The translations under genes were made by a program, and so were the position numbers. The notes beneath the pieces are model-generated. The model searched no databases. It saw only the letters and a program-made list of their open reading frames with translations, and was not told the origin of the DNA. 64,000 bases of DNA from Azolla caroliniana (lineage: Eukaryota > Plantae > Polypodiophyta): assembly GCA_043228905.1 (NCBI GenBank), contig JBHGNT010000018.1, positions 17,732,001 to 17,796,000 of the forward strand, in the 5' to 3' direction. This document shows, one piece after another, positions 2,839 through 58,629 of this stretch. Within the stretch, counting starts at the first letter, position 1, and each line of letters starts with the position of its first letter.

Positions 2839-3267
2839 TGTCAGGAATAGTATTAAAGCAGAGATGGAATTAGTACTAATAAGAGAAGTACTATTAGTAC
2901 TAAGAAGACGGGACTGCGTGAGATTCCCGAGAGAGGAAGTGAGAAGAGGAGAGAGAGAGATAGCGAGGATGAGAGAGAGAGAAAGATGATGACAACAACT
3001 AATATATTATGTGAAAAGATAAGTACAAAGCGGCTACGAGGCTTAAGACTGGCGTTGAACCAATTTGGTTCAACATAATGCCTAGTGCCTTCTTTTATAG
3101 TGTTGTCAGGAGTAATCCTGAAACTTCTAGAATGTTCCAGAGAAATCTGGAATATACATTACTTTCTTATAATAAAATAAATGAAAATAATATCCTATGA
3201 ATTATAATAGATGGTGTGATGGTTAAGAGCTCGACCCATATACCATAAGGTCATGGGTTCGAGTCTT
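2839..3267 (-). repeat. 5' LTR of chromovirus copy A, missing about 14 terminal bp
   Basis: Reverse complement aligns to LTR 52655-53092. Starts TGTCAGGAA at 2839 on the + strand; homology stops after GGTTCGAGTCTT at 3267. Confidence 0.88.
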
Positions 3268-5537: not shown

Positions 5538-6655
5538 TGTGTAGCCTTTCTGGGCCCTTCACACATTGATGCCCTTTTTTGGCTCTTTTTGTATGTTGGG
5601 CGCTTCACACACTTCAAATGTTGAGGCTCAATAGTTGGCAATATTCTTATCAGACATCATTCATGAGAGTCAAACAGGGTTTATCAGAAGTTGGTGCATT
5701 TTTGATAATGTGTTATTGTTATGGGAAGCTATGGCATTGACAAATTGTTCCGTGCCGAGCTCTGCTATTCTATTGGTAGAATTCTAGAAGGCCTACGATA
5801 GAGTACTCTAGCCCTTCTTGGAGAACGTGATGTGAGTAATGGGCCTACACAAAAAATGGAGGAACTATACTTTTGACTTTATAGGACGAGTACCATTAGC
5901 ATGTTGCTAGCTGGCATCAAGGACCCCTCCTTTGAACTGCAGTGTTCAGTGTGGCAGGGTTGTCTCCTGGCCCCATATCTTTATCTATTGATAACTGAGA
6001 CTTCCTTTGTAGCAGATTGAGGGGAATGTCCATCTAGATGACAAAAAGGAGAATTTGCAACGGGCAGAACAACTTGTTAAGGACTTTTTCTAGGCCTCTA
6101 AGACCAAGGTCAATCAAGATAAAACCCAAAGCCTCTAGATTAACACATAGGAGAAACCAAGGTGGCAATCCCACATCGATTTTAATTGGGTTCCAAACGT
6201 GAAGACCTTCAAGTACGTAGGCATTATGATGGGGGTTGGGATCCCAAAGGGGGGGCAACTGTCCCATGTGTAGTCAGAAATAAGCAGCAAGCGGAACTAG
6301 TAGAGCAGCTCTAAACTATCATTTGTTGGCAAGGTACTTGTGTGAACCAGGTGATGCTTGCCACCATTTGACACCTAGTCTCATGTTGGATTATGGACCC
6401 TACAACTATGCTCATGATTAAGGCCACCATTAAGGGGTTCATATGTTCAGGTAAGGACAAACCAACGGCAACTGCCAGAGTGTCATGGCGTTGGTTAAGG
6501 TAGAGACGAGCATTGCTAGAGCAAAATGGTGGTTCGGTGCCTTCTGAAAGGTAAGGAGTGTTGGAAGGTATTCCTTCATAACATGTTACAAGTAGGGACT
6601 CCCAAGTATGGCAGGTCTTGGCATGAATCCTTGAATTGGTGTTGCATGAATGGAT
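4516..6655. repeat. About 1.02 kb inverted repeat (arms 4516-5537 and 5636-6655, 98-bp spacer)
   Basis: Arms are near-exact reverse complements. ORFs 4881-5138(+) and 6034-6267(-) encode near-identical peptides. Confidence 0.95.
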
Positions 6656-10706: not shown

Positions 10707-13700
10707 TGTTGTGAAGATTTTCGTCCACAAGCGGAAACCCGAGCAACGAGAGCCAAAGAGCGACGTGCAACGTTGCACACGTACATAATGTATTTGTAAT
10801 AGTAATAAAGGTATAAAGGTGATGTGGTTGTACGCACATCCACGCGAGAGAGAGAGAGAGAGGTACCATGCGGTACATAGGTACCTAGTTGTTTGTGAGG
10901 AGGTGGGAGTTAAGGGGCCATCAATCTCACCCTTCCCCAAATTAAGGCAAATATCCCCTTTGAATGAAAGGGGATATTTTAGTCTCACTTTTGTAGACAG
11001 TCTTCCCTCGTGCTATAAAAGGAGAGAGAAGGCACCATTGTGGGGGTTGCCTATTTTGAGTGTGCGAGGTATACCACATAGGTTGTGCGTTAGGGTTCGG
11101 TTAGGGTTTTCTTCTTGGGTTTTCCTTTAGGGTTTTCTTATAGTCGTTTGGTGCGGCCATGGCGGCCACCATTATAAAGCGTTTATGTTTCCTTAATCGA
11201 ACTTCTTGTTGAGTATCTTGATGGCATCTTCTTCTTCTATCATAATGTCATATTCATTCTCTTCTCCTCTTGAGCTAATCTTTCTCCTCCACTCCCTAGT
11301 CCAAGACCCCCGTGGTCCCGCCCTTCTACACGCACGCGCGTAATAACGCGACATATTTGGTGAACCCGACGTGAAGGGCGGCAAGGGAGCATGGAGATGG
11401 AAGAAGACTTTGACTTTGAGGAGATGATGACAAAGATCGTGATGGAAGCCGGACGGAAGATGGCGAAGCGAGATGCGGCTCAACAAGCCGTCGAAAGGGT
11501 GGTCGATCGAGTTGGCCGGTTCAATGGGAATGAGGTCCTAAAAATTTTGGGAGCCTACAAGGCCGAGATGGCGAAAGGGGGCGTGGACGAGGCGATGCGA
11601 CTAGAGTATTTTCCGCGAGTGGCGGCCGTATCGGTGCACAAGGACGTCAAGGAGCTACGAGAAGCTCATGAGTCATGGGAGTCCTTCGAGGGAGCTCTAT
11701 TGGAAGCGTACGGATACGTGAAACCGGAGTGGGTATGCGGGCAACCCGATGGGGAGCGGTCGGCAACAACATGGCCCAAGAACGGTGGAGAAGAGAGAGC
11801 GGCGAGTGAGTACGCACTACCGCCGGAAGAGAGCTCAACGCAAAACGGTTCGGAGGAGCTTGACCTAGAAGCGCTAATACGGGAGGCATGCGAGCTTGTG
11901 AAGGGGAAAATCGAAGCCGAAGAAGGGCTTATTATGGAGTCGGGCGGGAGGCGATCGGAGGTTGAGGAGGCCGAAAGAGAATGGTACATCGGTACCACGG
12001 GAGAGGGTGCGGAGCGAGCCACCCTCTCGACATGTGGAGAAAGATCGACTGAGGACGAGGTCGGGGACGGTGAGGCGGCGATCGCCGATTCGAGCGGACA
12101 TGAGGGAGTTCGGGCATGGAGATCCGAAACATCGAGCGGGGAGAAGACGGGCGGTGGTGCCGCGACCTTACGCACACCGGGCCTAGAGACTCTGGCAACC
12201 GGCCCGAGAGCCGGTGTGAGACCTAGAGTGACGGGCGGTGATGGCAGCAAGGCGGGCGACCATGATGACAACGATGTGGGAGAGGGTGCGGAAAGAGCGA
12301 CTCTCTCGTCTTGCGGCGAATGGACGGCCATGGAGGTCGGTAACTACGGATTCGGGACATGGCGGCCCGAAACATCGAGGGAGGAGGAGACAAGCGGCGG
12401 TGCCGCGACCTTACGCACATCGGGCCTAGAGACTCCGGCAACCGGCCCGAGAGCCGGTGTGAGACATAGAGTGACGGACGGTGGCGGCGGCAAGGCGGGC
12501 AACCGAGACAACGGTAAGGAGACCGTGGAAGAGGAGGTGGCAAGCATAATTGATGCTTGCATATACGGAGGCGGGGTAGCCATGGACGACGATGTCCTAA
12601 TGGAGGTGGCTACGGGCATAACATTGATGAGCGGCGACGTTGCTACCCTATACGCACCGGTTCAAGAGACCCTGGCGGCCGGCCCGAGTGCCCGCGTGAG
12701 ACCTAGGGTAATGAACGGTGGCGGCGGCAAGGCGGGCAACCGAAATGACGAAGAGGAGGTTTGTAGCGGACGGAGGCGAGATCCCTCGACACCGGGGCCG
12801 GAGACTTCGGCGGTTGCGCCCGAGCGCGGACATAAGACCGGGGAGATGGGCGGTTGCCGTGAGGATGAGAGGCCCGGAGTGGGCACGTGCGAAAAGACCG
12901 AAGGAGAGGTCCGGAGCGGCATCGAGGAGCGAGTCGGGAACCGACCCGACTGAAAGATGAGCCGGTCGGTAATCCGACCCGACCAGGAGGCGGAGCGGAA
13001 GAAGAGTGAAGCGGGGGCCGGTCAACCGGGCACGAACCGAAGGAAGCCGGCAAGACCGGGATTGTTTGATCGATTCGTAGCCGGCCGGGTACGGTTACGG
13101 TGGGAGCTGGTGAGAGCGAGAAGGAGGCCTAGTGGGCACGGTGATTACGGCTTGCTAGAAGACCGAGAGCGAGAGGGACCTTCCACACCCATTCTAGAGA
13201 CTTCGGCGGTTGCGGATCAACGTGAGACCGGAGAGACGGCGGGTGGCGGCGAGGAGTCGGAGGCCGAAGCGGACAAAGTTATCGGAGCGGGTATCCGGTG
13301 TGAGATGATGGACGAGCGGGTCCAAGATGGCGAGCTCGGGTCGGAACGGGCTACAGTGACAAAGGAAGAAGTGGCCGACGTGGAGGTCAGGTCTACGGCG
13401 GATGAAGGGCGTAACACGAAGCATGCACTATGGTCGGTGAAGGGCCCAAGAACGAGCGTGCATCCGAGAGAGCATCAACGAGTGACCGGAAACGGTGGAC
13501 CGATTGAGCCTTTGAGAGGCGAGGACTCGGTGGTGAACCGAGAGTGGGAGGAACCCTCCACACCTACCCGTGAGGCATCGGCGGTCGCGAATCAAAAGGA
13601 GAACGAAGAAGCGGTGGGTGGCGGCGAGGAGTTGGAGACCGACGCGGAGGTTGGGTCTACGGCAGAAGCACGACACGAGACGCATGCAATACGGCCGGTG

Positions 13701-15308
13701 GAGGGCCAAGACACAAGCATGCATATGGCGGATGGGCGACAACGATTGACCGACAATGACGGTCGGGTCAAGCCTTCGAGAGGCAAGCGCGGGACGAAGG
13801 ACGGCGCGGCGAAACACCAAGATCGACGACATGCGCCGAGCGCGATCGGCATGAGCGGAGAGTCGTATCTAGGAAAACGGAGGAGATGCGCGGAGAACAA
13901 CGGGGTACAAACCGGGAAGAGAAAGCGCGACGGTTTTCTGGAGGGCATACAAGGCCAAGCGGGCCAAGAGGGCGCAAGTCGAGGCGAGGTGATAACGAGA
14001 GCCTCGAGGGACACCGACACGGAGGTCGGGATGACGATACACTCTACTACGAGAGAGCACGGCGAAAAAGGGGAAAGCGAAAAAAGCGTGATGGGGTCAT
14101 CGAAGGACCGAAGCACGAGCACGCATTCAGAGGGAAACATCGACATACGGGGAAAGCCTACGGAAGGGAAGCGCGGAGCGGAGAGAGTCGGCACGCCGAG
14201 GTGTGCGGCACGCAATGGGCGGAATCCGGCATGCGACCGGGAGTGCATCCGGAGGATATACGAGGCAGACAAAGGAAGAGCAACCGGGTCGGCGACGGCG
14301 TTCGGGAGGACCGAACGGGGAGGAAAGCACGGGCATCGGATACGGCGGGTCGGATGTAGTCGGTGGTTCAAGGACCCACGGTGGACGTGGCGGATCGGGT
14401 GGAGGCAACGACTCGGCGAACATCGTCGAGTGTGGCGGATCAGATGGCGCCGACGGTTCGAGACCTTTTGGCGAGGATGGTGGGCCGGAAGGCTGCGGCG
14501 GTTCGTGTGGACGGGGTGGTCTTGCTCGAAGTGGAAGACAAAGCCGGGCGGGCCCACGAGGACGCTAAGGACTCAGTCGGTTGTCGTGGCCGAAAATCTT
14601 GTGTTCTCTCCCCTATGTTTTGGCACATACCGGAGGATGTGCGGTTAGGTGGGGGCGGATGTCGTGAAGATTTTCGTCCACAAGCGGAAACCCGAGCAAC
14701 GAGAGCCAAAGAGCGATGTGCAACGTTGCACTCGTACATAATGTATTTGTAATAGTAATAAAGGTATAAAGGTGATGTGGTTGTACGCACATCCACGCGA
14801 GAGAGAGAGAGAGAGGTACTATGCGGTACATAGGTACCTAGTTGTTTGTGAGGAGGTGGGAGTTAAGGGGCCATCAATCTCACCCTTCCCCAAATTAAGG
14901 CAAATATCCCCTTTGAATGAAAGGGATATTTTAGTCTCACTTTTGTAGACGGTCTTCCTTCCTTGTGCTATAAAAGGAGAGAGAAGGCATCATTGTGGGG
15001 GTTGCCTATTTTGAGTGTGCGAGGTATACCACATAGGTCGTGCGTTAGGGTTCGGTTAGGGTTTTCTTCTTGGGTTTTCCTTTAGGGTTTTCTTATAGTC
15101 GTTTGGTGCGGCCATGGCGGCCACTATTGTAAAGCGTTTATGTTTCCTTAATCGAACTTCTTGTTGAGTATCTTGATGGCATCTTCTTCTTCTATCATAA
15201 TGTCATATTCGTTCTCTTCTCCTCTTGAGCTAATCTTTCTCCTCCACTCCCTGGTCCAAGACCCCTGTGGTCCCGCCCTTCTACACGCACGCGCATAATA
15301 ACACGACA
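10707..15308 (+). mobile_element. Non-autonomous gypsy element D (gag-like N-terminus plus long repetitive ORF, no pol)
   Basis: LTRs 10707-11353 and 14660-15308, tRNA-Trp PBS 11358-11375, G-rich PPT before 14660, 4-bp TSD ACGG. Confidence 0.92.
11391..14648 (+). CDS. Gag-derived ORF of D with acidic, Gly-rich internal repeats; one in-frame TGA at 12951-12953
   Basis: The 520-aa and 563-aa ORFs are in the same frame. N-terminus VGRFNGNEVLKILGAY resembles E gag IGMFDGTNISKYVNIY. Confidence 0.7.
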
Positions 15309-15750: not shown

Positions 15751-17541
15751 ATCTGTGTCTTCTCACAGACAAACAACAACGAATGGATGTTTAGCCGCAG
15801 ATGCCCTAGAGAACCGACACGACCAGATTGGCCAATCAGAAGGTCCATCACACGCTAGGCAGAGGACTGCGCACGGCAGAAACCTCGCCTCAGCGACCTC
15901 AACACTACCTGCTATGATCACAAAGGTGATTTTCCGCTCTCCAAATACCTCGATGATACGCGGGGAGCACGCTCACCACAATAGCACTGTGGTCTTTTTC
16001 GACCTGCCGTAGCCCTCAGCATGGCCTTTGCCTATCCCCGTTTTAACGGCGAAACCGACGCCGCAACTCATATTCACATGTTCCTCAATGTCTGGAATGC
16101 AAACCACATGGCGCAGAGTCTTTATGAGGCGACATCGCACCAGTCCAAAATGACGGAGTTTGGGTTAACATTGGATGGGCGAGCGGCATTCTAGCATTCA
16201 CAGATGGATTTGCCAGCAATCACGACCTTCGATCAGCTGTAGTCCGCCTTTTTGCGGTTCTTCCATCGGAGGGTTCCACAACGAGAAATCCTCGGACAGT
16301 TCTACACAATTAAGCAGCTGCCGACCAAGACAATCGCAGACTTCAGTTTATGGTTCCAAAATTTACGGCGGAAACTAGAATGGAGCCCTGCGGAGGACGA
16401 AGCTTGGTAGACATTTTTGGTAGCATTACACCGACCCATACGGAAAACGCTCAACAACAATAGCGTGAAAGGGGAAACAACGGATATGATCATTGAACGA
16501 GCATTACAGCTCGAGCTGGACGACGAAGAGGAAAGGTTTTCTATGTCCTCATTACGACAAGCGTTACCTCAGGACAAGGAACGATAGTTTCGTCAAGCAA
16601 TCCAGTGCACGATTTGTTTGAAATCGGGGCATTCCGCAGTGGAGTGCAACATGCGAATCCACTGCCCAATCTGCCACTCAAAGGCTCACACAGTCGAACA
16701 GTGCGAATCCAATATGTTGAACAGAGCCGCTCCCACAATATGCTGTCGTGAAGTATGAAAGCTTCACATTAAAAGTCTACAATAAGATAAAAGTCCCAGG
16801 CATATATTGTTTCATACATAAAAGCTCAAATGAGCGAGATGTTTATCATGCATCACATGTAATGCATGAACGCCAAATGGCGACCATGCATCACATGCAT
16901 GTCTTGTACCCTCCAATGCATCATATGCATGGGGGCACCTATTTAAAGGGTGAAAGAGAAGATCAAAAGGGGAAGAGGTATGAGATATCAATCAAATTAT
17001 GTATTACATAAGAGATACCATGAAAATAGAGAAAGAAGGGAAGAAGTTGAACATAAACATGGAGCTCTAGCTTGGCGGTCATGGCGGTCAACTCTCAACA
17101 AGAGGGAGGCGGTTCGAGCCTTATCTTCATCAAAATATTGAAGCAAAGATTGTAGTGGTCTACAATCAAGAAAGAGAAGAGCGATTACCTTGCAAGACAA
17201 AGTTCGGAGGTTCAACGACGTGCACAATCATTTTGTAACTCTTTCATGAAAATGATTATAAATTTCATACACTTTCTCATATATTATTTTATATCTTATC
17301 TTGTCTTATCTTATATTCCTTAAAAATCCTATTTTGTCATATCTTATTGATCTCTATTCACTCCATCTCTACTCTTTTGTCTCTTCCGTCCATAATCCCA
17401 GTGATTCCTTCCTCACTTTCACGTTATCCTTTGTGTGCGCAACGCTACGCTTCTAGGCGAGCCACGTCATGACACAATTTGGTGAACCCGACGTGAAACG
17501 GTGAAGTAGAAGAGACATCTAAAGTAAAGATCAACATCAAC

Positions 17542-23164: not shown

Positions 23165-23235
23165 TGGCACATGCCGGAGGATGTGCAAGTCTAGAGGGGG
23201 TGGATGTCGTGAAGTACGAAAGCTTCACATTAAAA

Positions 23236-28695: not shown

Positions 28696-28717
28696 TAAAA
28701 GTCTATAATAAGATAAA

Positions 28718-29175
28718 TACGTAACTAAAATAACATTTGATAATGTTTTATATATAAAGATAACATTAACAACACATATGATAATATTAGATATATATAA
28801 TGTTTTATATATAAAGATAACATTAACAACACATATGATAATATTAGATATATATGTAAAGAAAAATAATATATATATATATATATATATATAGATAAAT
28901 ATATTATATTACACGAACAAGAGAGGACTTGAACCAATAACCCCACCCTATGATTCTCAAATCTTACCATTTACTCTATACTAGTAATATACATAAAATA
29001 AAGCATACTTTATATTACATAAAGGATTTGCTTCATGATATAAAAATAAAGTTGTATGTTGTATTCAATAGTATCTAGAGACTCAAACCCACAACCTCAT
29101 ACACCAAAGTCAACACAACTACCATTAGGCTAGGTCCTTTCTCTTTAAGATTATATTTTCATGTTTATTGTTATT
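28718..29175 (-). other. 458-bp segment present only in the 3' LTR of E: two tRNA-like A/B-box modules, (TA)n and a short tandem duplication
   Basis: The 5' LTR has only AGTCCCAG at this position. Minus-strand boxes TAGCCTAATGG..GGTTTGAGTC (29132-29080) and TAGAGTAAATGG..GGTTCAAGTCC (28978-28925). Confidence 0.7.
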
Positions 29176-31345
29176 GCATATATTGTTTCATACATAAAAG
29201 CTCAAATGAGCGAGATGTTTATCATGCATCACATGTAATGCATGAACGCCAAATGGCGACCATGCATCACATGCATGTCTTGTACCCTCCAATGCATCAT
29301 ATGCATGGGGGCACCTATTTAAAGGGTGAAAGAGAAGATCAAAAGGGGAAGAGGTATGAGATATCAATCAAATTATGTATTACATAAGAGATACCATAAA
29401 AATAGAGAAAGAAGGGAAGAAGTTAAACATAAACATGGAGCTCTAGCTTGGCGGTCGTGGTGGTCAACTCTCAACAAGAGGGAGGCGGTTCAAGCCTTAT
29501 CTTCATCAAAATATTGAAGCAAAGATTGTAGTGGTCTACGATCAAGAAAGAGAAGAGCGATTACCTTGCAAGACAAAGTTCGGAGGTTCAACGACGTGCA
29601 CAATCATTTTGTAACTCTTTCATGAAAATGATTATAAATTTCATACACTTTCTCATATATTATTTTATATCTTATCTTGTCTTATCTTATATTCCTTAAA
29701 AATCCTATTTTGTCATATCTTATTGATCTCTATTCACTCCATCTCTACTCTTTTGTCTCTTCCGTCCATAATCCCAGTGATTCCTTCCTCACTTTCACGT
29801 TATCCTTTGTGTGTGCAACGCTACGCTTCTAGGCGAGGCACGTCACGACAACGCAACATGGACACACAATGTTCCCGATGCCGTACTGAACAAAGGAGGC
29901 AAGAAGACCGACCGCGGTATGTGGATCGCAACCCACGTGACGACCGGCACTACCGGAATCGTTGGAATCACAACGATTCCGAGGAAGACGAGCCAGAGGA
30001 TGAGGACTACCGTGGTCCCCCGTGTTATGCTAAAGGGGGCCGACGCTATGAGAATCACCGGCCGACAAACAAACGTGGTGGTTTCAATGGATGGCGTGGG
30101 TAGCACAAGCGGGGGAATTGCACGCGTATTGTGTGGACTGGGGAACCGGCGAAAAGACGGCCAAGGTTTCTATAAACTCAATGAGGAGAGCATTGCGACA
30201 GTACGCGAGGACCTAGCGCAAGACTATCGCGCGCTAGCGGATCAACATTCTGAAGAACTCGCGCAACTATTAGATGATTTTAGTGAAACCCAGGAGGAGT
30301 TGTTTCACCAGATCACACAAGCCGGCAGCACACAAACAAATGAGGAAGCCATCACGACACCAATTCCGGACACTACCGAAGAAGGGGAACCTCAGGCCAG
30401 GTCACCAGCAATTACAACTACGGTGAACAACGCGGAACGACGAGCGGAGTCTCCCCCATTACCAGATAGCGAAACCGCTGCCCAAGAGGAACCCCATCTA
30501 TCGGAGCATATGCTATCGACCAACCACACGGAGAATGTTGCGGACCAAGCGGAACCGCAACCCCACTCCCTAGAGTGTACAACGATGGCTGACACCACGA
30601 AGAAAGTGATAGATGAGACGAAGCCGCGATCGACCGCAAGCCCACTGACGGCTGAGCCCAACCCCCTAGCCCAAGAAGAGCCCATAGAACCTGGACTGCC
30701 CACACAGGACGATCGCGACACTAGGAGAAGCCCTCTCGACCAAACAGGGGAACCACACCACGACGCACCTACGGGCCCTACACCGTCCCCGGACGCGGAC
30801 ACCATAGCAGAGCCAAACATCCGGGCCATTTTGGAAGAACATTAACAAGATGGGTCCGACGTGCCATGGCACTGTCCCACAGGCGTGCCAGGTGTTGTCC
30901 GTTGGAATAGTAACCGACGGACAAAAGCGCAGGAATAGGAAATAGTATAAGATTGTAACACATGTAACGGTTCACGCGGGAAGCGTGAACAGCTAAAAGA
31001 CCCTGCGTATATAAAGGGCAGAAAACCTCTAATAGAGGTAGCGTGTAATTTTGGGAATGTAAAGAAGCGTATCGTAATAGAATTCTATCTTCTCTGATAT
31101 CTGCATATAGCTATAGCTAATCTAATGTGTGTCTGTAACACCTGAGAGTGTAGAATAAGCAACGGTGAGTGTGTATCCACTGATAAGGAGCTCGGTTGTA
31201 GCCATCTCCCTTATACGCCGTTAGGTTACGGGGAACATTCCCCTACGTATTACGCACAAACGCTACCGTTCGTTGTCACACGGTCACTTGGAGGTCTAGG
31301 TCAAAGGACTGACCGTAAACCGTGTTCCTAATCGGTAACACTTTA

Positions 31346-37586: not shown

Positions 37587-38740
37587 TACGCCGAGGGAGT
37601 TTATATGGTCGATGGATTGAACGACGACGAGGTTGCCCAATATTTAGAAGAGAATCCGAAACTAATATCACTATTCAAAATTGACATCATTGAAACAGTC
37701 AGCTCGTACGTGTCCAAGAGGGACACCAAGACGGAGGAAAACTTAAAGGAATCGAACCCAAAATCCGTGGAAGAACTCAATATATTTAGAGTATATATTC
37801 TTTAACTATATGTATAAGCACATCATTACAATGGTTAAGGATTTGACACGTATATAACAAAGTTGTGGGTTCAAATCCTTTCAAGGCATCATGTGAGTGC
37901 CATCATGACAAGATATCATCATTATGTGAGTGGCATCATGACAACCACCATCACAGACGTGTTGGACATCGTACCAAGCCACGAAATCTACAGCTTCATG
38001 GACAACTTTAGTGGATACAATCAAATCCAAATGAACCTAGAAGACCAAGAAAAGACAATGTTCATCATGGAATGGGGTGTTTTCGTGGCAGTTGTGATGA
38101 TGTTCGGCTTGAAAACGGTGCATGTGACATTCTAACGAATCATCATGAAAATCTTCAGTGATTATGTTCCTACATTTATGTAGTTCTTTTTAGATGATTT
38201 TGATGTATACAACCAATGACTTGAACATCTCGAACACCTATCCCTTTTCTTGGATAGATGTCGAGCGGCTCGACTAAGCTTGAATCCCGTGAAATGCCCA
38301 TTCTGCGTAACCACCAGAGCACTACTAGGTCACATCATCAGCCGAGAAGAAGTTGTAGTAGACCCCGAAAAGGTCAAAGAAATAATCGAGGCTTCAACAC
38401 AAGAAAACGTAAAAGCCTTGAGCAGATTTTTAGGACAAATTCGGTGGCACAACCGAATGTTACGATATTTGGCCGATTTCCCGATGCCACTACATGCGGC
38501 GGTACACCGCATGCCATTTTGATGGGCACCTACTGAGGACAAGGCATACCAGGGCCTCAAAGTCATGCTATCACAGGTACCTATCATCCAACCACCGAAT
38601 TGGACGAAACCATTCCACGTTTTTGTCGATGTCTTCGACACGACAATTGGCAATGCATTGATGCAATTCACAACACCAAATTGGTATCGGCTAGTATATT
38701 ATGCGGGCTGGAGACTCTCAACAATAGAGAAGGATTATGG
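37587..38740 (+). pseudogene. Gypsy pol fragment J (RT-RNase H), host of copia I
   Basis: SFMDNFSGYNQI, VMMFGLK, FLDDF and KPFHVFVD motifs. Confidence 0.85.
37782..37943 (-). repeat. Chromovirus-type LTR U3 fragment with duplicated terminus and tRNA-like module
   Basis: Ends CATCATGACA twice (37910, 37943; reverse complement TGTCATGATG, like copy F). ACAATGGTTAAGG..GGTTCAAATCC at 37824-37878. Confidence 0.6.
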
Positions 38741-42392: not shown

Positions 42393-44100
42393 TATCACAT
42401 TCTAGACTCAAACCTCTGACTTTTAACACACACACAATACATTGTAAATACTTGTAACCTCCTTGGTCCCTTTCAAGGGATACAACACCAGCCATTGACA
42501 CATCAATCTAGTATTCTCGTTTCGCCTCATCTTTGTCTCCTTGATCTTTCTTTCTATCTTCATGCCCTCATGTCGCTCACAATATCTAGAGTTCTTAACC
42601 TCCTCACATCTAGCTCCAAGTTCATCCGTCGCTCGTAGCCTCATCATTTGTGCTCCATCCTAGTCTGCGCTTGGTGTGTCCGTGATAGTTTGAATCACTT
42701 CCAACTGATAGCACCACCCATCTTCATCATCGCCTTTGCTTCTAGAGTTACCATCATCACCGTCCTTACTTCCGAAGTTACCGCCATCAACATCCTTGTC
42801 TTCAACGTCATCATTTTCATCACCTCTTCGCCCAACCATCGTCGTCATCAACACTACTTGTCATCATTTTTAGGTATCATTTTGCATCACGGTTTTGGTG
42901 AGGAGTGCTTTCGATCGCTCACCTTCCCAGTTCTGGTGGGGGTCACACCTGCTCGCTTTCCTGGTGGGGATGGGATCATTGCTCGTTTGCACTGCATTTT
43001 CGTTATAGTTCAAGTCTCGCGCCACTTTTTGTTGGCGAGGACTGATTTCAATCGTTCACCTTCTAGTTTCGGTGGGGGTCACAACCGCTCACTTTCTTGG
43101 TGGGGATCGTGTGGGTTTTTCGCTAGAGTTACCGTTTGAACAGTGTCTTGGGTCAACCTCGACTATTTACCCTCTCATAAAAGAAGAAGTCGAGTCGACC
43201 GCTTCACTTGCATTCCTTCACCCGTTGTTGTTCTAGTTCTCGGTGATGGCCGCATGGTCGTTCACGTCCGTTTATGTTCAATTCTCGGTGAGGGTCACAT
43301 GGTCGCTCACATCCATTCGTGTTCCAGTTCTCGGTGAGGGCCGCATGGTCACGCTCACGCCCGTTCGTATTTTCGATGAGGACTGCACATGGTCGGTCAC
43401 GTTCCGGTTCTCAATGAGGGCCACACATGGTCGCTCATGTCCGTTTGTGTTCCAATTCTTGTTGAGGGCCACGTGGTTGTTCGCGTCCGTTCGTGTTCAT
43501 GTTCAAAATCTCAGTGAGGACCGACATGGTCTCTCATGCCTATTGGTGTCCATGTTCCCTATGAGGACTGCACATGGTCACTCACGCCTGTTGGTATTCA
43601 TGTTCCAGTCTCTGGTGAGAACTGCACATGGTCGCTCACTCCAGCTATTGTTCGTGTTCTAGATCCTGGCGAGGACCAGACATGGTCGCTCACGCCCATT
43701 GGTGGTCGTGTTCTAACTCTCAACAAGGACCGACATGGTCTCTCATGCCCGTTGGTGGTCGTATTCCAACTCTTGGTGAGGACCAACATGGTCTCTCATG
43801 CCCGTTGGTGTTCGTATTCCCCGTGAGGACCACACATGATCACTCACGCCTGTTGGTATTTGTGTTTCAGTTCATAACAACGACTGCACATGGTCGCTCA
43901 TGCCCGTTGGTGTTCAATACCTTGTCTTCTAGAAGGGTTACTTCTTGTCTAGGATTTACAAAATGCTTTGGAGGTGGTCTAAGATTTTCATCAACAATAT
44001 CCCCTTAATCCAACGACCGGTTTGGGAAGCCGGCGTAAGAGGGGGGATAATGTCACATTCTAGACTCAAACCTCTGACTTTTAACACACACAGGACATTG
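42393..44100 (+). mobile_element. TRIM-like non-coding LTR element K with about 95-bp LTRs
   Basis: Direct repeat T(A/G)TCACATTCTAGACTCAAACCTCTGAC at 42393 and 44051. PPT AAGAGGGGGGATAA before the second copy, which is cut by copia L. Confidence 0.72.
43220..43915 (+). repeat. Tandem array of about 14 units of 38-54 bp inside K
   Basis: Recurrent GTGAGGACC(N)CATGGTCGCTCACGCCCGTT. Confidence 0.9.
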
Positions 44101-48899: not shown

Positions 48900-50117
48900 T
48901 GTCAGGAATAGGACTAAAACAAAGAAAGAATTAGTACTAGAGAAGGGAAGTACTATTAGTACAAAGAGGATGGACTGCGTAAGACTCACGAGAAAGAAAG
49001 AAAGATAAGAAAGATATATTAACGTCTTCTAAGACCAAATTTGGCCCATGAGACAATTGGTTTACAACAAAAGAGTATTTATCCAGACATCATAACTAAA
49101 ATAAAATTAAATAAAAAATAGAACTTAAACTAAAAGAGTTCTAGTAGTGTACAATACGTAGTATACTCGAAAGTGACTATACACTAAGCCTAATTTTATT
49201 TCCACCCAAGCCTCTCGAAAAGAAGTGGAGGGTCAAAGGGTCTTGATGTGGGTGTGACCCGTGGTTCCAATGTAGAGAGTGCCCTAGCCATGGCTTCTAG
49301 GCGGTGTAGCTCACGTTCCCTTATTTTCAATATTGCTTCCACATCACGTCGAGTTGCTTTGAAACCTGGCACCCGAGGACGTCTGGTTCTTCTCTGGTTT
49401 TCTGCCTCATCAATGGAAAGGCCGAGTGGTGCAAGTGTGTCGGCATTCGTTGTCTCCCCCTATTCCTGAAAAATTTCATTTGTTACATGTTCGTTGTCGT
49501 GAAGATTTTGGTCCATAGGCGGAAACCGGGGTGGGAAGGGCAAGTCGGTGGTGTGCTACATGTGCACATGTAAACTAGGATATGGTGTATAGAAAGAGAG
49601 GGGAAATTTTATCCCACATTGTAAGGTCCCTCCCTCCTTGGGCTATAAAAGGAAGGGAGGGGTCACTTATGAAGGGTTGCCTATTTTGAGGGAGAGAGGC
49701 ATACCACTTAGGTCGAGGGTTTCCTATTTGGTTTTAGGGTTTCAGTTAGGGTTTTCTTCTTGGGTTTTCCTTTAGGGTTTTTCATATAGTCATTTGGTGC
49801 GGCCATGGCGGCCACCATTGTTGTAACCATTCGTTGTTTTAATATCACTTGTTGAACATCTTGCCTCCGCCGATCTCTCCTTCTATGTCGTGGTCTTATT
49901 CTTTCCTCTTCTCCTCTTGAGCGAAGCATCCATATCATGTCCTATTCTTTCTCCTCTACTCCCTAGTCCGAGACCTCGGTGGTCCCACCCCTTCTACACG
50001 CACGCGTGTAACAACGCGACATCGTGATCATTAGAAACATTATTGTCAACATTTTGTAACTTATTCTCTCTGTGTTGTTTTAGCTCTAGAATGTATTTGC
50101 CTAATTTCTTTATATCT

Positions 50118-50169
<52 letters not shown>

Positions 50170-51530
50170 TGATGATATATTATGTGAAGAGTAAGTACAA
50201 AATAGCTATGAGGCTTAAGACTGGCGTTGAACCAATTTGGTTCGAAATAATGCCTTGTGCCTCTTTTTATAGTGTTCTCAGGAATAGTCCGTAAAGTGGA
50301 GAATATCAGCCTAATCGTCTTGTTGATAACTCAGAAATCACCGAAGATATTGTTCCAGCATTTGATTCGTTCGTTTCGCTTGCCCATCGGTTTGGGGATG
50401 GTAGCCGAGGGAGAGGTTGCAAGAGACCTTCAACATCTTGAAGAGATGCCTCCAAAATTTGGAGAAGAATTGAGGTCCTCAGTCACTAATGATACTGTCT
50501 GGGAGGCCATGATGCCGAAATACCTCACGCATGACAAGGGCTGTGGTTTCCTCACTAGTGATGGCCTTAGTACAAGGCACAAAATGTGCCATCTTAGAAT
50601 ATCGATCGACAACAGTTAAGATAGCATCGAAACCCTTCGAGACTGGAAGATCTGTGATAAAATCAAGACAAATGAACTGCCACGGCTTACTAGGAATTGG
50701 TAAGGATTCTAACAAGCCATATGGATGATGTCGTGGCATCTTTGCTCGGCAACAAGCATCACAGGTCCGAACATAGTCGTCGACAAAACGTCGCATATGG
50801 GGCCACCAAAAGGATCGTCATACTAGATCCAACGTCTTAGTACTACCGAAATGTCCAATTATATGGGTGTCGTGACAATTTTGGACGATTTGAAGGTGAC
50901 AGGAGCAATCGGGAACATACACGAGCTTTTTAAAGAATAATAAACCATCATGATATTTGAATTGTCGGTAGTCCATACATGGTTGTTGAGTCTGGGAACA
51001 GGATGCCCGAGAAGCATCAATTTGCGCAAGAATGGCTTGAGCAAAACTATTCATCTTCAAGTTGGCACGTATGGCATCGATAATCTGGGAATCCAGTGCA
51101 ATGTGAAAAATCCGCGTTGTGTGCAAATGCCGTGATAGTGCATTTGCTTTTCCTTGCTGCTTCCCCGGCCGATATGTGATTTTGAAGTCAAAACGTGTGA
51201 GGAATTGGGCCCACCGAGCATCCCGTCGATTTAGTACACGAGTGTTCTAGAAGGAAGCAAGATTTTTGTGATCACTGAAGACGATGACCTAATGAGAAGA
51301 GCCCTCTAAGAAGTGCCGCCATTGCACAAACGAATCCACAATGGCTAATAACTCCTTGTCATGTATCTCGTAGTTAATTTCCGCGACATCAAATTTGCGT
51401 GAGTGGAAAACCACAAGATGTAACTTTTCTTTATCTCCTTGTTGTGAAAGGATGCTACCGAGGGCGAAATCCGATGCGTTGGCCTCCATGATGAATGGTT
51501 TGTTTGTATCCACATGAGCTAGAATAGGAC
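48900..51530 (-). mobile_element. Deleted Tcn1-like chromovirus copy N: 3' LTR pieces (48900 to about 49010, and about 50118-50290), INT and RNase H fragments
   Basis: LTR text matches copies A and F. ORFs 50479-50796, 50818-51126 and 51289-51513 match F pol. Confidence 0.87.
49495..50021 (+). repeat. Solo LTR of the D family
   Basis: TGTCGTGAAGATTTT..AACGCGACA, homologous to D LTRs, with exact 4-bp TSD TCGT. Confidence 0.92.
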
Positions 51531-53165
51531 CTTGTGTAGGATCTATGTATCGATGGAGTTAACTCCTCGATGTCGTTTGCGGAGTTGAGACCGGCGTATA
51601 CCCTTTTGATGGTGAATCGGGCAAAGATGGTTGTCGGACACCTCCGAGCCTCACACTCACTTAACGCTTAATAGATGATTAAACACGATATCTCTCTCAC
51701 TCTCACAAGCTCACTCTCATAGACAATAAGAGTAATGAATATGTTATTAACCCTCTTTGCTAAGAGGTCTAGCACCAACAAGGAAGAGAGATTAGTGTTC
51801 TCTAACTAAACACTTCAGTAATCTCTCTTAAGCTTAAAGGTTACAAGAAGGAGGAGAGGAAGTTCTAGCTGTTAATCAATAGGGAGATCTTTACAAATGG
51901 AAGAACCCTTACAAAGCCACCACCATGTGGTTTATATAGCATTTACATTTAGGGTATGGACCTTTCACACTTGGATGTCTCTTAGCCCTCTTTCCGCTTG
52001 CCATTCCCTCTTCGTAGGTCCTTTAGCTATACTATGGCCTTGTTGATGTGCTCTTCTTCATTACCAGTCGTGGTGCACTCCAAGCGCTTAACATCCCCCC
52101 CGACCTAATGAGTGCACACTCCCGGGTGCATTGTGGGAGGGGAGCTTCGGGCGTCGAGGCTGGTCGGTGGCGAGTTCGTGGGCTCATTGGACCTGTTGAG
52201 GATCATGTGTCAACTTGAGGAACTCACCAGTGATACGGTTGATGGCGTCGATGGCGGCAGTGTTACCGATCTAGGCGATGGCGCTACAACGATCGTGGAG
52301 GTGAGAGGGAATTTCGGTGAAACACCAACCCTCGCGTCCGGCATACTCGGAGTAGGTGGCAGAGATGATGTTGGAGACGACGCTAGGGGCTTTCGTGGTG
52401 CGGAAGGGGATGTCATCCACCAACAAATGTAGCATAGTGCAAACGTCGGCGATGTTGAACTGGAACTCAACAAGGGTAGCATCCACGAAGGTGTGCATGT
52501 AAACATGGCCGTAATCGGGGTTGTATCCTGTGAGGAACCGACTGACCAGCTCGGGAAGTACACCCCAAAGGCCAATCCTGAGGAAGAACGTGAGGCCTGG
52601 TAGGTACAACGGGTGTTGTTGAACTCGGGTTGAATTACCAGGACTCGCGCGGAGTGTCATGATATGGCAAGACTTGAACCCATGACCTTAGGTTATATGG
52701 GTCGAGCTCTTGACCATTAGACCATCTATTGTAATATGTAGGATATTATTTTCATTTACATTTTATTATAGGAAATTAGTGTATATTCCAGATTTCTCTG
52801 GAACATTCTAGAAGCTTCAGGATTACTCCTGAAAACACTATAAAAGAGGGCACTAGGCATTATGTTGAACCAAATTGGTTCAACACCAGTCTTAAGCCTT
52901 TTAGCCACCATTGTATATTCTCTTCATATAATACATATCTTTCTTATCATCTCTCTCTCTCTCTCTCTCGATCTCTCTCTTTCTCTCCGTCTCGCTCACT
53001 CCTTCCTTCTCTTGAAGAAGTTCTACACCTCTCATAGTACTAATCCTTCGTTTAGTACTAATTCCTTCTCTGTCTCAGTATTGTTCCTGACAGTTTGAAC
53101 CAATTTCCCTACCTTCTATCTCTCTCATTTCCTACTAATCTCTTATTCCTCTTTTCTTTCATCCC

Positions 53166-54317
53166 ATGGTCACTGTTAGCGCTGAAGAATATCAATCTAT
53201 TTTCTCGGAATTTCAATGCTTGAAAGAGAAGTTCCATGCTTTGGAACAAGAAAACCAACGGCTGTTGGGGGATCTTCAGCAAATCTCCTTAGAAAAGCAG
53301 CAAACGCAACAACAGCATGGGGAACTCGCGCTACGCGTGCAACAACTCGAAGCAACCATCATAGCGATGCAACAACAAGGGCCCGGAACACAAGGGATTC
53401 ATAAAGAACCCAAGATTGACCTTCCCACGAAGTTCGATGGAACGCGATCGCAGTTTAGAGGGTTCCTTAACCAGGTACGATTAGTTATCCAAATGCATCC
53501 TTCCCGATATCCCACCGATGCATCACTAGTGGGTTTAGTAGGCACTTTGTTAAGTGGCCCAGCGTTGTCATGGTTCGCTCCACTATTAAAAAAGGAATCT
53601 CCGTTACTCAACAATTTTGAAGAGTTTCTAGGTGAGTTTAAAGCATGTTTCGGAGATACTGACAGCATCAGGACCGCAATCAACAAAATTCGGCGATTAC
53701 GCCAAGGTGACCGTCCAGCCTCCGCATACGCTGCAGATTTTCGCCTACTCGCCGCCGATATCCCTTGGGATGATCAAGCGTTGATGGAGCAATTCCGTTA
53801 TGGTTTACGCAACGACGTCAAGGATTTACTCTTGACCTTCCCCGAAGATCCAAAGTCCTTAACAGAAGCAATCAGTCGCGCGGTGAGATGTGACAACCGC
53901 CTCTTTGAGCGACGTTCGGAAAGACAGCTACAGATGCTGAGGCCAAGATCAGAACCCACCTACGCCTCAGTGGTAGCAAGACCTTTTCCGAGGGAGTCAT
54001 ATAATGCGCCTCCAGCGAATACTCCGACTCCGATGGAGATTGACACTACACATCGTCGAGGGCCATTATCTGAAGAAGAAAAGCAGCGACGCCGTACAAA
54101 TCGACTATGTCTATACTGCAGTGGACCAGGACATATCGCAATAAATTGCCCCCATAGGCCTCGAAGACAGGTAAACCAAATAATCACTAGTTCTAATTGT
54201 ACTAAACCCGAGCCTATTTCAGTAGGGATATCTGATAGTCCTAATAGTACTAATAGCCCAAATCTAGCGAGCAAATTTGATGTCCTTAGTTAGTTAGAAG
54301 AAGAGTTAAACGACTAA
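53166..54317 (+). CDS. gag: gag of copy F (premature TAG at 54291-54293; family stop at 54317)
   Basis: Coiled coil, capsid-like region and CLYCSGPGHIAINC knuckle. Confidence 0.9.
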
Positions 54318-57300
54318 GTCCAGCCAAAATAGGAGCCGTTTGGTTGGACAGCCCTAGATCTGTGCAGCCCATTAGTGGTTCCATTCCCTCTAAGCAAGTT
54401 AGCGATGTGTTCGTAGCCCAAGTAATAGTTAGTACTAAAAGTAACCCTCCAGTACATGTCTTAGCACTCCTAGATTCCGGAGCTAACTCTTGCTTTATGG
54501 ATAAGAAATTTTCTCAAGCTCATAAGATATCCCTAAGAAAACTCCAGTGTCCAGCCTCTGTAGTAGTCATTGACGGACGTCCCATTGCTTCCGGAAATAT
54601 CATAGAAGAGTCAGAGCCCATTAATATTGTCCTAGATAACTTAGCATGTGTAGTATCATTTAATATTATTAGTATCCCAGAACATCCTATAGTTTTAGGA
54701 TTACCGTGGTTCGAGTTACATAACCCAGACATAGATTGGAGAACAAGAGAAATCCGGTGTCGACAAACCCAAGGGTCAACTCAGAAGATGGCAACCATTT
54801 CGCTACGTTAGTTGCGTAACGAAGGGCGCGAGGAGGAAATGTTCCTCTTTGCAATATCAGTAAACCCCTCCAGCACCACTAAAGAAGAATCCACCGTTCA
54901 ACTTCCCGAGAAGTATTGTCATTACGCCGATGTGTTTGATAAAGTACAAGCCAACACACTTCCTCATCATCGACCGTACAATTGCCCCATCGATTTACAA
55001 CCGGGAAAAGAGCCGCCATGGGGACCAATCTACAATTTGTCACCAACCGAGCTGGAAGTCCTTCAGGCCTATATCGAGGAGAATTTGGAAAATGGTTTCA
55101 TTCGACATTCGAAATCTCCAGCCGGCGCGCCCATTTTCTTCGTCAAGAAAAAAGATGGATCGCTTCGTCTCATTGTAGATTACCGTGGCTTGAATAAGGT
55201 TACAATCAGGAATAGGTATGCTCTTCCCCTTATCTCAAGTCTTTTAGAACGGATCAATGGTGCCAGGTTCTTCACAAAGATCGACTTACGGGGAGCATAT
55301 AACCTTGTACGGATCCGACCAGGAGACGAATGGAAGACCGTGTTTCACACCAGATATGGGCACTTCGAGTATACGGTCATGCCGTTCGGCCTCACTAATG
55401 CGCCGGCAGTCTTCCAGCACATGGCTAATGATATATTCCGAGATCTATTGGATGATTGTTTGATCATCTATTTGGATGATCTAATGGTTTATTCAAAGAC
55501 CCAAGAAGAACATGATTCTCATGTACTATTAGTACTAAAACGACTTCAAGAACATGGTCTGTATGCAAAGCTGGAAAAATGTAGTTTCGGGTGCAACCAA
55601 GTGGAATTTCTCGGCTACATCATTTCGTTAGAAGGCATCTCCATGGACCCAGCTAGGGTCAAAACGGTGGTAGAATGGCAGACTCCGCGTTCGGTGCGGG
55701 ATGTGCAATGCTTCCTAGGCTTTGCCAATTTTTACCGGAAGTTCATACAAGATTACTCAAAGATCGTTCTACCTCTCACACAACTTACCAGGAAGGGACA
55801 ACCGTTCATCTGGTCTGAAGAAACGGACATGGCTTTCGAGAGTCTTAAAAAGGCATTTACATCGACTCCAATTCTAGCTCATGTTGATCCGGAAAAAGCA
55901 TTCATTATCGAAGCTGACGCATCGGATTTTGCATTCGGGAGCATTCTGTCACAACAGGGGAATGATGAGAAGCTACATCCTGTGGCTTTTCACTCACACA
56001 AGTTTGACGCCGCCGAAATTAACTACGAAATTCATGATAAGGAGCTATTGGCAATAGTGGATTCTTTTATGCAATGGAGGCATTTTCTGGAGGGATCCTC
56101 TCATCCAGTCACCGTATTTAGTGATCACAAGAATCTTGCCTACTTTCAAGATGCTCGTGTGTTGAATCGACGTCAAGCTCGGTGGGTCCACTTCCTCGCG
56201 CATTTCGACTTCAAAACTACATATTGTCCCGAGAAGCACCAAGGGAAGGCAGATGCATTATCACGACGTTCGTATCTAGCACCCCATCCCGGCGAGCCAG
56301 CTTTCGATAACCAAAAACAAGTCATCTTGGGACCGGCACGACTACAAGCAACACAGATCTTTGACATGCCCATGGATTCCCGCGTTATCGATACCATACA
56401 TGAAGACTTGAAGATAGATGCGTTCGCCCAAGCTATACTAGCACAAATTGATCCCTCTCGAGCGTCGTGTTCACAGTCGCAACCACCAGGTACGGACTAT
56501 TGGCAATTCAAATACCAAAATGGATTACTCTTCTTTAAAGAACTTTTGTATGTTCCTAATGGTTCTTGCCGCCTTCGAGTAGCTCAAAACTGCCATGACA
56601 CATATACAGCTGGGCATTTTGGTAGTACTAAAACATTACATTTAGTACAACGATCATTCTGGTGGCCCTGTATGTGACAATTTGTCGAGGATTTTGTTCA
56701 GACTTGTGATACATGTTGCAGAGCGAAAATGCCAAGGCATCATCCATATGGTTTATTAGAACCATTACCAATTCCAAGCAAGCAGTGGCAATCCATTGCT
56801 CTCGACTTCATCACAGATCTTCCAGTCTCTAAGGGGTTCAATGCGATTCTAACGGTGGTCGATCGATACACGAAGATGGCTCATTTCTTGCCATGTACTA
56901 AGGAGATCTCCAGTGAAGACACTGCCGAAATTGTCATGCGTGAAGTATGTCGGCATCATGAACTTCCCGATAGTATCATCAGCGACCGTGGACCCCAGTT
57001 CGTGTCAAAATTCTGGAAGCACCTTTTTAACATGCTCAAGGTCTCTTGTAACCTCTCCTCCGGCTACCACCCACAAACCGACGGCCAAGCTGAACGAACA
57101 AATCAAACGCTGGAGCAGTATCTACGGTGCTTTCTCAGTTATCATCAGGACGACTGGGCAGATATTCTCCACTTCGCCGAATTTGCCTATAACAATTCTA
57201 TCGACGCATCCACTAAAGTTACGCCATTTTATGCTTATACAGGATGTCACCCCCGGTGGAGTGTACTTGAAACCCCAGAGGTGTCCACAAATCCGTGCGC

Positions 57301-57901
57301 GGAGGATCGTTTGGAGCGGTTACGCAAGATACAAGCGGATTTATCTACTCATCTCCAGCAAGCTCAACAAACACACAAGGTCTACGCGGATCGTCATTAA
57401 CTTCCATCCAGTTTTAATATTGGAGATCGGGTGTGGCTGCTACGACGACACATCAAGACTACTCGCCCATGTGAGAAGTTGGATTATCGGTGATTAGGTC
57501 CTTTCCGTATTATTGGACAGATTAATGATGTCGCTTTTCGTCTCGATCGACCTCCTCAACTTCGGATACATCCGGTGTTTCATAGTTCTCTCCTCGAACC
57601 CTACCACGAGAGCACCATCCCAGGACGTCTTATCCAACCTCCACCCCCGATCGAGCTTGAAGATGGGCCGGAGTACGAGGTTGCGGCCAACCTTGATTCC
57701 AAGATTGTTCGCAACAAGCTCTACTATCTAGTCGATTGGCTAGGCTATAGTCCCAGCGAACGTACTTGGGAACCGATCGAGAATGTGACCAATGCTCGTG
57801 CTCTTCTTGAAGACTTCCATCGTCAATATCCACACAAACTGGGTCCTCAATCCAAGACGACTCATGACACTCGTCGTTTTAAAGGGGGGATAGTGTCATG
57901 A
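54305..57901 (+). pseudogene. pol: pol of copy F: PR-RT-RNaseH-INT-chromodomain, in the -1 frame, with several stops
   Basis: LLDSGAN, YLDDL, IEADASD, ISDRGPQF, and chromodomain EYEV..YYLVDWLGYSPSERTWEP. Confidence 0.95.
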
Positions 57902-58629
57902 TATGGCAAGACTCGAACCCATGACCTTAGGTTATATGGGTCGAGCTCTTGACCATTAGACCATCTATTGTAATACATAGGATATTATTTTCATTTATAT
58001 TTTATTATAGGAAATTAGTGTATATTCCAGATTTCTCTGGAACATTCTAGAAGCTTCAGGATTACTCCTGAAAACACTATAAAAGAGGGAATTAGGCATT
58101 ATGTTGAACCAAATTGGTTCAACACCAGTCTTAAGCCTTTTAGCCACCATTGTATATTCTCTTCATATAATACATATCTTTCTTATCATCACTCTCTCTC
58201 TCTCTCTCGATCTCTCTCTTTCTCTCCGTCTCGCTCACTCCTTCCTTCTCTCGAAGAAGTTCTACACCTCTCATAGTACTAATCCTTCGTTTAGTACTAA
58301 TTCCTTCTCTATCTCAGTATTGTTCCTGACACGGAGGAGCTTGGTGAATTGGGTGGACGCCATCAATTATAACCTGCCAGGACAAAGGTTAGTAGTGTAC
58401 CCATTCTTGCGTGTCTTGACCCTTGTCTACCTCAAATTGTTCTTTTTCTTCTTCTTCTTCTTTTAGCTTTTTTTTTTGTTTTTTTATTTTTTTATTTTTT
58501 TATTTTTTTATTTTTTTATTTCAAAATTTTTTAAAATATTTTTTTTATATTGTTGACCACGATATTGTATGGACCTAATGACATGAACAGTTTATTCATG
58601 GGATGGGGGGTTTGGAGGAGTTAAGTGGG

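Follow-up and report, generated by a model that had tools for sequence, protein, structure and literature searches.

An outward-facing tRNA-type box module in the LTRs of a Tcn1-type chromovirus clade and its possible use as a chromatin barrier

Why should a protein-coding LTR retrotransposon with a predicted Pol II promoter carry the internal promoter boxes of a tRNA gene at the edge of its LTR, pointing outwards? The question arises from the window analysed here (the whole stretch of 64,000 nucleotides of Azolla caroliniana DNA). The original prediction had placed antisense A and B boxes in the U3 of a chromovirus LTR and had proposed either an insulator or a source of antisense RNA across the polypurine tract (PPT).

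Element B and the module at its LTR edge

The module lies in element B, which spans 52655-58331 (5677 bp) within a 5-bp target duplication. Its parts, and the other module copies of the window, are as follows.

52650-52654: target duplication CGGAG, left side, preceding the 5' LTR
52655..53092, plus strand: 5' LTR of element B, 438 bp, TGTCA...TGACA, with 9 differences from the 3' LTR
52669..52711, no strand: imperfect inverted repeat across parts of spacer and B box, predicted to fold into a non-tRNA hairpin (z -2.6)
52671..52680, minus strand: B box (tRNA positions 52-61), CpG changed to CpA in the 5' LTR only
52684..52688, minus strand: AGGTC (tRNA variable-loop positions 44-48), the best-kept non-anchor motif
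52714..52724, minus strand: A box (tRNA positions 8-19) of the 5' LTR
52725..52784, no strand: AT-rich stretch preceding the A box of the antisense module (83% AT in its 3' LTR counterpart), predicted TFIIIB seat
52800..52814, plus strand: GAAnnTTCnnGAA array, which we take to be heat-shock-element-like
52839..52845, plus strand: TATA box of the predicted Pol II promoter
52863..52885, no strand: palindrome at the predicted RNA start, complementary to the primer-binding site (self-priming)
53093..53106, plus strand: primer-binding site, a 12-nt complement of the LTR palindrome and not of a tRNA
53139..54293, plus strand: gag frame, Retrotrans_gag and Ty3_capsid
54290..57901, plus strand: pol frame, PR-RT-RH-IN-chromodomain, with four in-frame stops, overlapping gag at 54290-54293
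57881..57890, plus strand: PPT
57894..58331, plus strand: 3' LTR of element B, followed by target duplication CGGAG at 58332-58336
57910..57963, minus strand: A/AGGTC/B module of the 3' LTR, facing PPT and pol, first T4 run 899 nt off
3212..3265, plus strand: module in the 5' LTR of copy A, an element on the minus strand
37824..37877, plus strand: module in an LTR fragment from a different family of the same clade, 42.6 bits

By its architecture, element B is a self-priming Tcn1-type chromovirus. The Tcn1 clade is described by a self-priming primer-binding site, a 5-bp target duplication, overlapping gag and pol and a size of 5.5-9.4 kb (PMC6317226, passages on clade traits). Element B has each of these features, as well as the order gag-PR-RT-RH-IN with a C-terminal chromodomain, which resembles the chromodomains of SUV39H1 and HP1. 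The pol frame crosses the PPT and stops inside the 3' LTR (57894-57901), and many relatives share the same end residues. The element had been called autonomous; the gag-pol architecture is indeed present, but the pol frame of this copy contains four in-frame stops, and element B is thus autonomous in architecture only. Its named RT relatives include amphibian, fungal and algal records and a few from seed plants, and by eye its RT is close to that of SM-Tcn1 of Selaginella; the clade tree used below holds no reference Tcn1 element. In plants, Tcn1 is restricted to mosses and club-mosses according to the same passages of PMC6317226, which would suggest a non-seed plant host, likely a moss, for the lineage. 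No relatives were found among viral contigs. The family occurs at high depth in DNA runs of several organisms, so that its module sites could shape host chromatin and compete for TFIIIC. Truncated pieces of the family lie on the minus strand at 50120-51529 and 48900-49000, with the module-bearing part of U3 missing.

On the minus strand of the 5' LTR, the A box TGGTCTAATGG (52724-52714) is followed after 33 nt by the B box GGTTCAAGTC (52680-52671), which ends 16 bp inside the LTR, the LTR start being at 52655. The second copy at 57963-57910, with GGTTCGAGTC, and the boxes of copy A at 3212-3222 and 3256-3265 are likewise present, all in agreement with the original prediction. Copy A is about 78% identical to element B over 3.3 kb, and its LTR is without an outer terminus beyond 3267. 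The LTR fragment of the other family begins near 37911 on the minus strand, so that its module is again antisense and two families carry the module within the window itself. When LTR starts were shuffled by dinucleotides, a zero-mismatch A+B pair at a spacing of 32-34 appeared in 0/1080 shuffles, and a pair with up to 2 mismatches in 1/1080. A profile built without the window's copy gave 44-47 bits at the element B and copy A sites, compared with a maximum of 23.5 in 20 shuffled windows. Together, shuffle counts and profile scores indicate that the module in element B is not a chance match. In DNA-run reads over the A box of element B, G18, G19, T16, A15 and T20 are without listed variants, while positions 8-14 are variable. 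The same read tables list no variant at 52655-52687, yet miss a known inter-LTR difference there, and they were left unused for the B box.

Distribution and conservation of the module in the clade

To define the family, metagenome contigs (40/64 parts) were searched with an alignment of 28 chromodomain-region proteins, which returned at least 597 stretches, at least 354 of them encoding a relative. The best 80 were kept, representing 79 distinct loci; they were picked by chromodomain, blind to LTR and U3. In a protein tree obtained by a quick method from 135 columns, 52 rows including the window copy formed a clade with an SH-aLRT of 90, which is provisional. L047 was joined to it by 91% identity, giving 53 clade and 27 outgroup rows. 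At least 130 nt of LTR was required, leaving 41/53 clade and 21/27 outgroup rows usable; 12 and 6 rows, respectively, were dropped for a short LTR or an unlocated start. Collapsing clade loci at 75% identity yielded a non-redundant set of 27. Nearly all clade loci carry accessions of one series, and the host range of the sample may therefore be narrow.

A module was scored when A and B box occurred with at most 2 mismatches at a spacing of 32-34 in the first 130 nt of the LTR. Among these best 80 of at least 354 relatives, the antisense module was present in 26/41 clade loci and in 14/27 of the non-redundant set. The same sample had no sense-strand module in LTR starts of clade loci (0/41), no antisense module in outgroup LTR starts (0/21) and none in the next 130-nt windows of the LTR (0/24), and presence in clade versus outgroup differed with a Fisher p of 1.6e-4. 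When the spacing was freed to 20-60 nt, 10/15 best matches stayed at 32-33; the other 5/15 shifted to 25 nt, where the same D-loop word is read in an overlapping register. When up to 4 mismatches were allowed over both boxes and up to 2 in the B box, 18/27 non-redundant rows passed, and these provide the 18 modules analysed below; their chromodomain-region identity is 49-89% (median 63%). The remaining 9/27 rows fail this looser cut, although the profile gives 26 bits for two of them, L018 and L033. SM-Tcn1 has no module in its LTR when read by eye; the module is thus not universal to plant Tcn1 and, considering also the nine rows below the cut, is dispensable or lineage-limited.

The 18 modules had been selected on box matches, which inflates identity at anchor positions; therefore, the fair test lies in the positions left free in the patterns. 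Many of these are kept, namely T16 (16/18), T20, T20a and A21 (15/18 each) and A22 (14/18), within the variable loop A44 and G45 (17/18 each), G46 and T47 (18/18 each) and C48 (13/18), and elsewhere T60 (16/18) and T35 (17/18). Mean pairwise identity reaches 0.87 at positions 44-48 and 0.68 at positions 20-22, neither of which was used as anchor; the corresponding values are 0.37 for the spacer (23-43), 0.36 for the upstream flank and 0.33 for positions 66-72. In the coding part, second codon positions reach 0.78 and four-fold sites 0.42, with saturation at 0.29. The contrast persists among the 77 most distant pairs, with 0.33 for the spacer and 0.86 for AGGTC. The CpG of the B box is kept in 13/18 modules against local CpG depletion (39 observed, 64 expected). 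The module is thus conserved above neutral. Whether the boxes decay like the rest of U3 had been named as the decisive check; run across diverged families, it found box identity far above spacer, flank and synonymous sites and hence fails to refute an outward-facing tRNA-type module in a chromovirus U3, for which the conservation of the boxes across families speaks. In having a B box of consensus sequence and an A box at 30-60 nt, the module resembles a type 2 Pol III promoter. RVTGG and GTTCRA, the box motifs of plant SINEs (PMC7315354, passage on motifs), are both matched in 13/18 modules; G10 of the textbook A box is found in only 4/18. The free positions track protein relationships (Mantel rho 0.30, p 0.004), which is consistent with a single capture, although related elements share traits of this kind in any case.

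What is conserved is not a tRNA. ARAGORN reported no tRNA gene in the window and none in 43 loci, and the window's module had no tRNA match in Rfam, bearing out the earlier remark that the cloverleaf is not intact. With lowered thresholds, ARAGORN made 12 calls at 90% and 197 at 80%, mostly noise. One clade locus, L060, which is also among the nine rows below the looser cut, gave a full-model match to the Rfam tRNA family in a blind scan (27.7 bits, slightly below the gathering score of 29; E 0.0005 for a 213-nt search). The supposed resemblance to Met-type tRNAs fails across the family, where positions 34-36 hold 9 different triplets in 18 modules. A Met isotype was rejected also on T33 (8/18) and purine 37 (5/18), and no isotype can be assigned since positions 33-37 do not form an anticodon loop. 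In none of the four tRNA stems (acceptor, D, anticodon, T) was pairing better than with shuffled partners (Watson-Crick p 0.25-0.86), and alifold found no consensus fold of the 18 modules; accordingly, the constraint is on sequence and not on a tRNA product. Such retention of boxes without an RNA structure is what would be expected of a type 2 Pol III promoter bound by protein (PMC13578239 and PMC7990762, passages on such promoters). Judged from this conservation, the boxes are very probably selected TFIIIC-type sites acting at the DNA level.

The surroundings of the module follow one order, which inward from the module is AT-rich stretch, family-specific enhancer-like arrays and TATA box. Across families the distance of the module from the LTR edge is 16-65 nt, which places it outside the enhancer, whereas the arrays have been exchanged: those of L007, L012, L021 and L037 differ from those of L026, L028, L029, L032, L036 and L056. 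Some families have repeats that we label heat-shock-element-like and others repeats presumably of the G-box/CATGCA type, and the difference suggests different stress triggers, as far as motifs can tell. A fixed distance between A box and TATA box was rejected, as it varies from 113 to 196 nt where a TATA box was found. A CATGCA-type stretch also occurs in the LTR of an unrelated gypsy element (16745-17474).

This gypsy element has further features. Its 3' LTR, which starts at 23206 and is interrupted by a copia element, contains a 460-bp AT-rich segment (28716-29175) with two tandem antisense tRNA-like modules on the minus strand, at 29132-29078 (28.1 bits) and 28977-28924 (19.9 bits; null maximum 23.5). 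Its 5' LTR at 16745 has 8 other bases instead. The segment is either native U3 deleted from one LTR, which would make it a convergent case, or an insertion, and it matched none of the 79 loci of the best-80 sample. Both LTRs also have a sense A+B-like match on the plus strand (17068-17122 and 29444-29496, spacing 32), which at 16.3 bits is within the null range. Elsewhere in the window we noted a near-perfect, foldback-like 1-kb inverted repeat at 4516-6655 (98%, loop of about 98 nt), a degenerate tandem array of about 54-bp units at 43222-43916, and, at 10707-15308, an LTR pair (97%) whose two enclosed long reading frames match nothing in Pfam and which may be a non-autonomous element with a cargo that Pfam does not recognise.

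A barrier and its alternatives

The module is real and conserved and probably functional, and we consider it likely that its function is a selected TFIIIC-binding role of some kind. Our preferred reading, to which we assign a rough probability of 0.45, is that it is a site for host TFIIIC acting as a chromatin barrier that would protect the Pol II promoter of the element. An ancestor would have captured a tRNA or SINE head once, and this would have been inherited with the element. TFIIIC would bind the boxes and set TFIIIB on the AT-rich stretch between module and enhancer, a role that we take over from PMC13578239 (passage on TFIIIB placement). The stable complex would then hold the LTR edge open and limit the spread of silencing from the flank, while Pol III transcripts, if any, would be by-products differing in length. 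Such a barrier would make sense for an element that is expected, from its chromodomain integrase, to integrate into heterochromatin, as has been suggested for RLG1 (PMC7466625, passage on integration), and TFIIIC/tRNA barriers are documented in yeasts (PMC7990762, passage on barriers). Genomic RNA cannot come from the module, since it faces outward. In favour of a barrier or open-chromatin role, the module always lies outside the enhancer, whatever the type of that enhancer; its A box is weak in the 5' half, and no RNA product is shared. Several findings are contrary to it. The excess of T4 runs after the B box (see below) favours real short transcripts in some families, the module is not kept throughout the clade, and the 3' LTR copy faces into pol, a direction in which a barrier would serve no evident purpose. 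Moreover, the spacing of 32-33 nt is tighter than TFIIIC would need, and textbook box binding leaves this spacing, the better conservation of AGGT than of the A box and T35 unexplained.

In the first alternative the module works as a Pol III promoter and selection acts on its antisense RNA, with short transcripts ending near the LTR edge in some families and long read-through across the PPT into pol in others; the RNA would tune the element's own silencing or reverse transcription. Both boxes, the tRNA spacing and the AT-rich upstream stretch are kept as this would demand, and a T4 run follows within 60 nt of the B box in 12/18 modules (shuffle mean 7.2, p 0.013, the rows not being independent), in 8/18 inside the LTR (p 0.028). 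Several T4-bearing modules belong to one subclade. CAA lies within 20 nt upstream of T8 in 7/18 modules, and in the element B family the module can form a stable hairpin. However, there is no shared product, neither cloverleaf nor consensus fold; T4 is absent within 600 nt in 4/18 modules and a nearby T5 is present in only 1/18. From the 3' LTR of element B no T4 occurs for 899 nt, which together with the rarity of G10 makes the module a poor unit for a defined RNA. Antisense RNA also usually hinders LTR elements (PMC12786077, passage on antisense transcripts). We regard a selected RNA as unlikely.

Somewhat less likely is that a sequence of tRNA or SINE-head origin is now kept for a role other than TFIIIC binding, either as a hairpin beside the PPT in genomic RNA or cDNA, or for the TAACCA and TGAC cores on its plus strand, which we take to be Pol II factor sites. 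A hairpin would account for the fixed spacing and for T35. In the 3' LTR of element B, positions 21-36 pair with 48-63 at a z of -3.8 on the minus and -3.9 on the plus strand, and in 16 other modules the same register gives 105/240 Watson-Crick cells compared with 45-79 when slid. Covariation is weak, however (partner shuffle p 0.04-0.08 for Watson-Crick pairs, 0.14-0.46 with G-U), z falls below -2 in only 3/18 modules on the minus and 1/18 on the plus strand, alifold returns nothing, and the conserved A-box loop and AGGT lie outside the stem.

Alternatively, a TFIIIC site could serve targeting or nuclear positioning, as a tether to Pol III compartments or as a landing mark for the element's own integrase, as tRNA genes are for Ty3 and Tj1. 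Ty3 integration is directed by Pol III. The module does lie near the end of the cDNA, and Pol III-directed integration is found in related groups (PMC4600332, passage on integration sites), but within the window no insertion of the clade lies just upstream of a module; we hold this to be quite improbable.

Least probable, and largely refuted on the conservation data, is a neutral relic or a series of chance SINE insertions without function for the element: SINE-head-like modules do occur outside LTR starts (L009, L034, L070) and one of the 9 LTR differences of element B hits the B-box CpG, but either model predicts decay in a dead inserted copy, box positions are retained while spacer, flank and synonymous sites are near background, the module has a single orientation and place, and no SINE body or tail stands between B box and LTR end. 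The SINE-head-like modules themselves were seen at 2941-3010 of L009 (minus strand), next to pol sequence and with two similar stretches in L008, at 4984-5057 (plus) and about 583-640 (minus) of L070, and at 143-200 of L034 (plus). SINE-type donors thus appear to be common, and these modules could belong to undescribed SINE families that possibly donated the LTR module.

To return to the barrier, its fullest form, a heterochromatin-seeking autonomous clade with a portable outward TFIIIC barrier that keeps the Pol II promoter of each new copy open, is conceivable but in our estimate falls short of even odds. If true, it would be the first TFIIIC barrier in plants, where such barriers are undescribed according to a 2026 review (PMC13578239, passage on plants), and host genomes would be seeded with very many boundary sites. 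It would also suggest an answer to how chromoviruses stay expressible after insertion into heterochromatin, and offer a direct handle on whether TFIIIC barriers exist in plants.

Comparison with known systems

Among the Tcn1 chromoviruses of mosses and club-mosses (PMC6317226, PMC2864245; RLG1 of Physcomitrium, PMC7466625), self-priming and a chromodomain integrase are common to element B. In contrast to element B, the passages describing those elements mention no Pol III module. For SM-Tcn1, the paper gives no evidence of self-priming (PMC2864245, supplement S3); by eye, the sequence just behind its 5' LTR seems able to pair with a word of the LTR ~80 nt past a TATA-like box, as in element B. 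The full-text literature searched, which mostly leaves subscription papers and Repbase notes outside, does not describe antisense tRNA-type modules in the LTRs of Tcn1 or any other autonomous plant element.

tRNA-derived plant SINE heads resemble the module in their RVTGG and GTTCRA boxes and decayed cloverleaf. Unlike a SINE, the module has no body, tail or target duplication of its own; the LTR ends 16-65 nt after the B box, and the module moves as part of it. Yeast tRNA-gene/TFIIIC barriers (PMC7990762, passage on barriers) offer what may be a functional analogue, with A and B boxes and an AT-rich upstream stretch at a boundary of active and silent chromatin. They are host-encoded and experimentally shown, whereas the module is borne by a mobile element.

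Closest in LTR content are the Helenus TRIMs (Kojima 2024; PMC10886601, passages on Helenus), in which tRNA-derived LTR sequence is likewise conserved at boxes A and B without a functional tRNA, a feature shared by Helenus, TRIMp3 and the element B clade. Helenus elements are non-coding, 311-1263 bp long and tRNA-primed; their tRNA part is proposed to stem from a SINE insertion and the boxes to drive the element's own transcription. Its orientation is left unstated in those passages and would be sense by inference. Element B instead has 5.7 kb with gag-pol, is self-priming, possesses an extra TATA promoter and bears its module facing outward. It thus departs from Helenus and TRIMp3 in coding capacity and size (those being non-autonomous, non-coding and under about 1.3 kb), in lacking a tRNA-complementary primer-binding site, and in having no Pol III promoter for genomic RNA, with sense modules in 0/41 loci of the best-80 sample. 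Only elements under 1 kb were analysed for Helenus, and autonomous partners were said to require Pol II promoters; 'not a few' Repbase LTRs were mentioned, without description, as resembling part of a tRNA (PMC10886601, same passages). As LTRs over 1 kb were set aside there, the resemblance of LTRs to tRNAs may have been glimpsed without study. Cassandra and Ajax (PMC7215508, PMC10886601, passages on these TRIMs) are alike in having long kept the Pol III promoter of a small-RNA gene in their LTRs, but theirs is of the 5S type (A/C boxes) and they are non-autonomous. Cassandra makes its genomic RNA from this promoter (PMC7215508, passage on transcription), which the module of element B, facing away, cannot do. 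LTR small-RNA promoters have so far come from tiny non-autonomous TRIMs, which they serve as element promoter; in the element B clade, which is protein-coding and whose boxes face outward beside a Pol II promoter, they must do something else.
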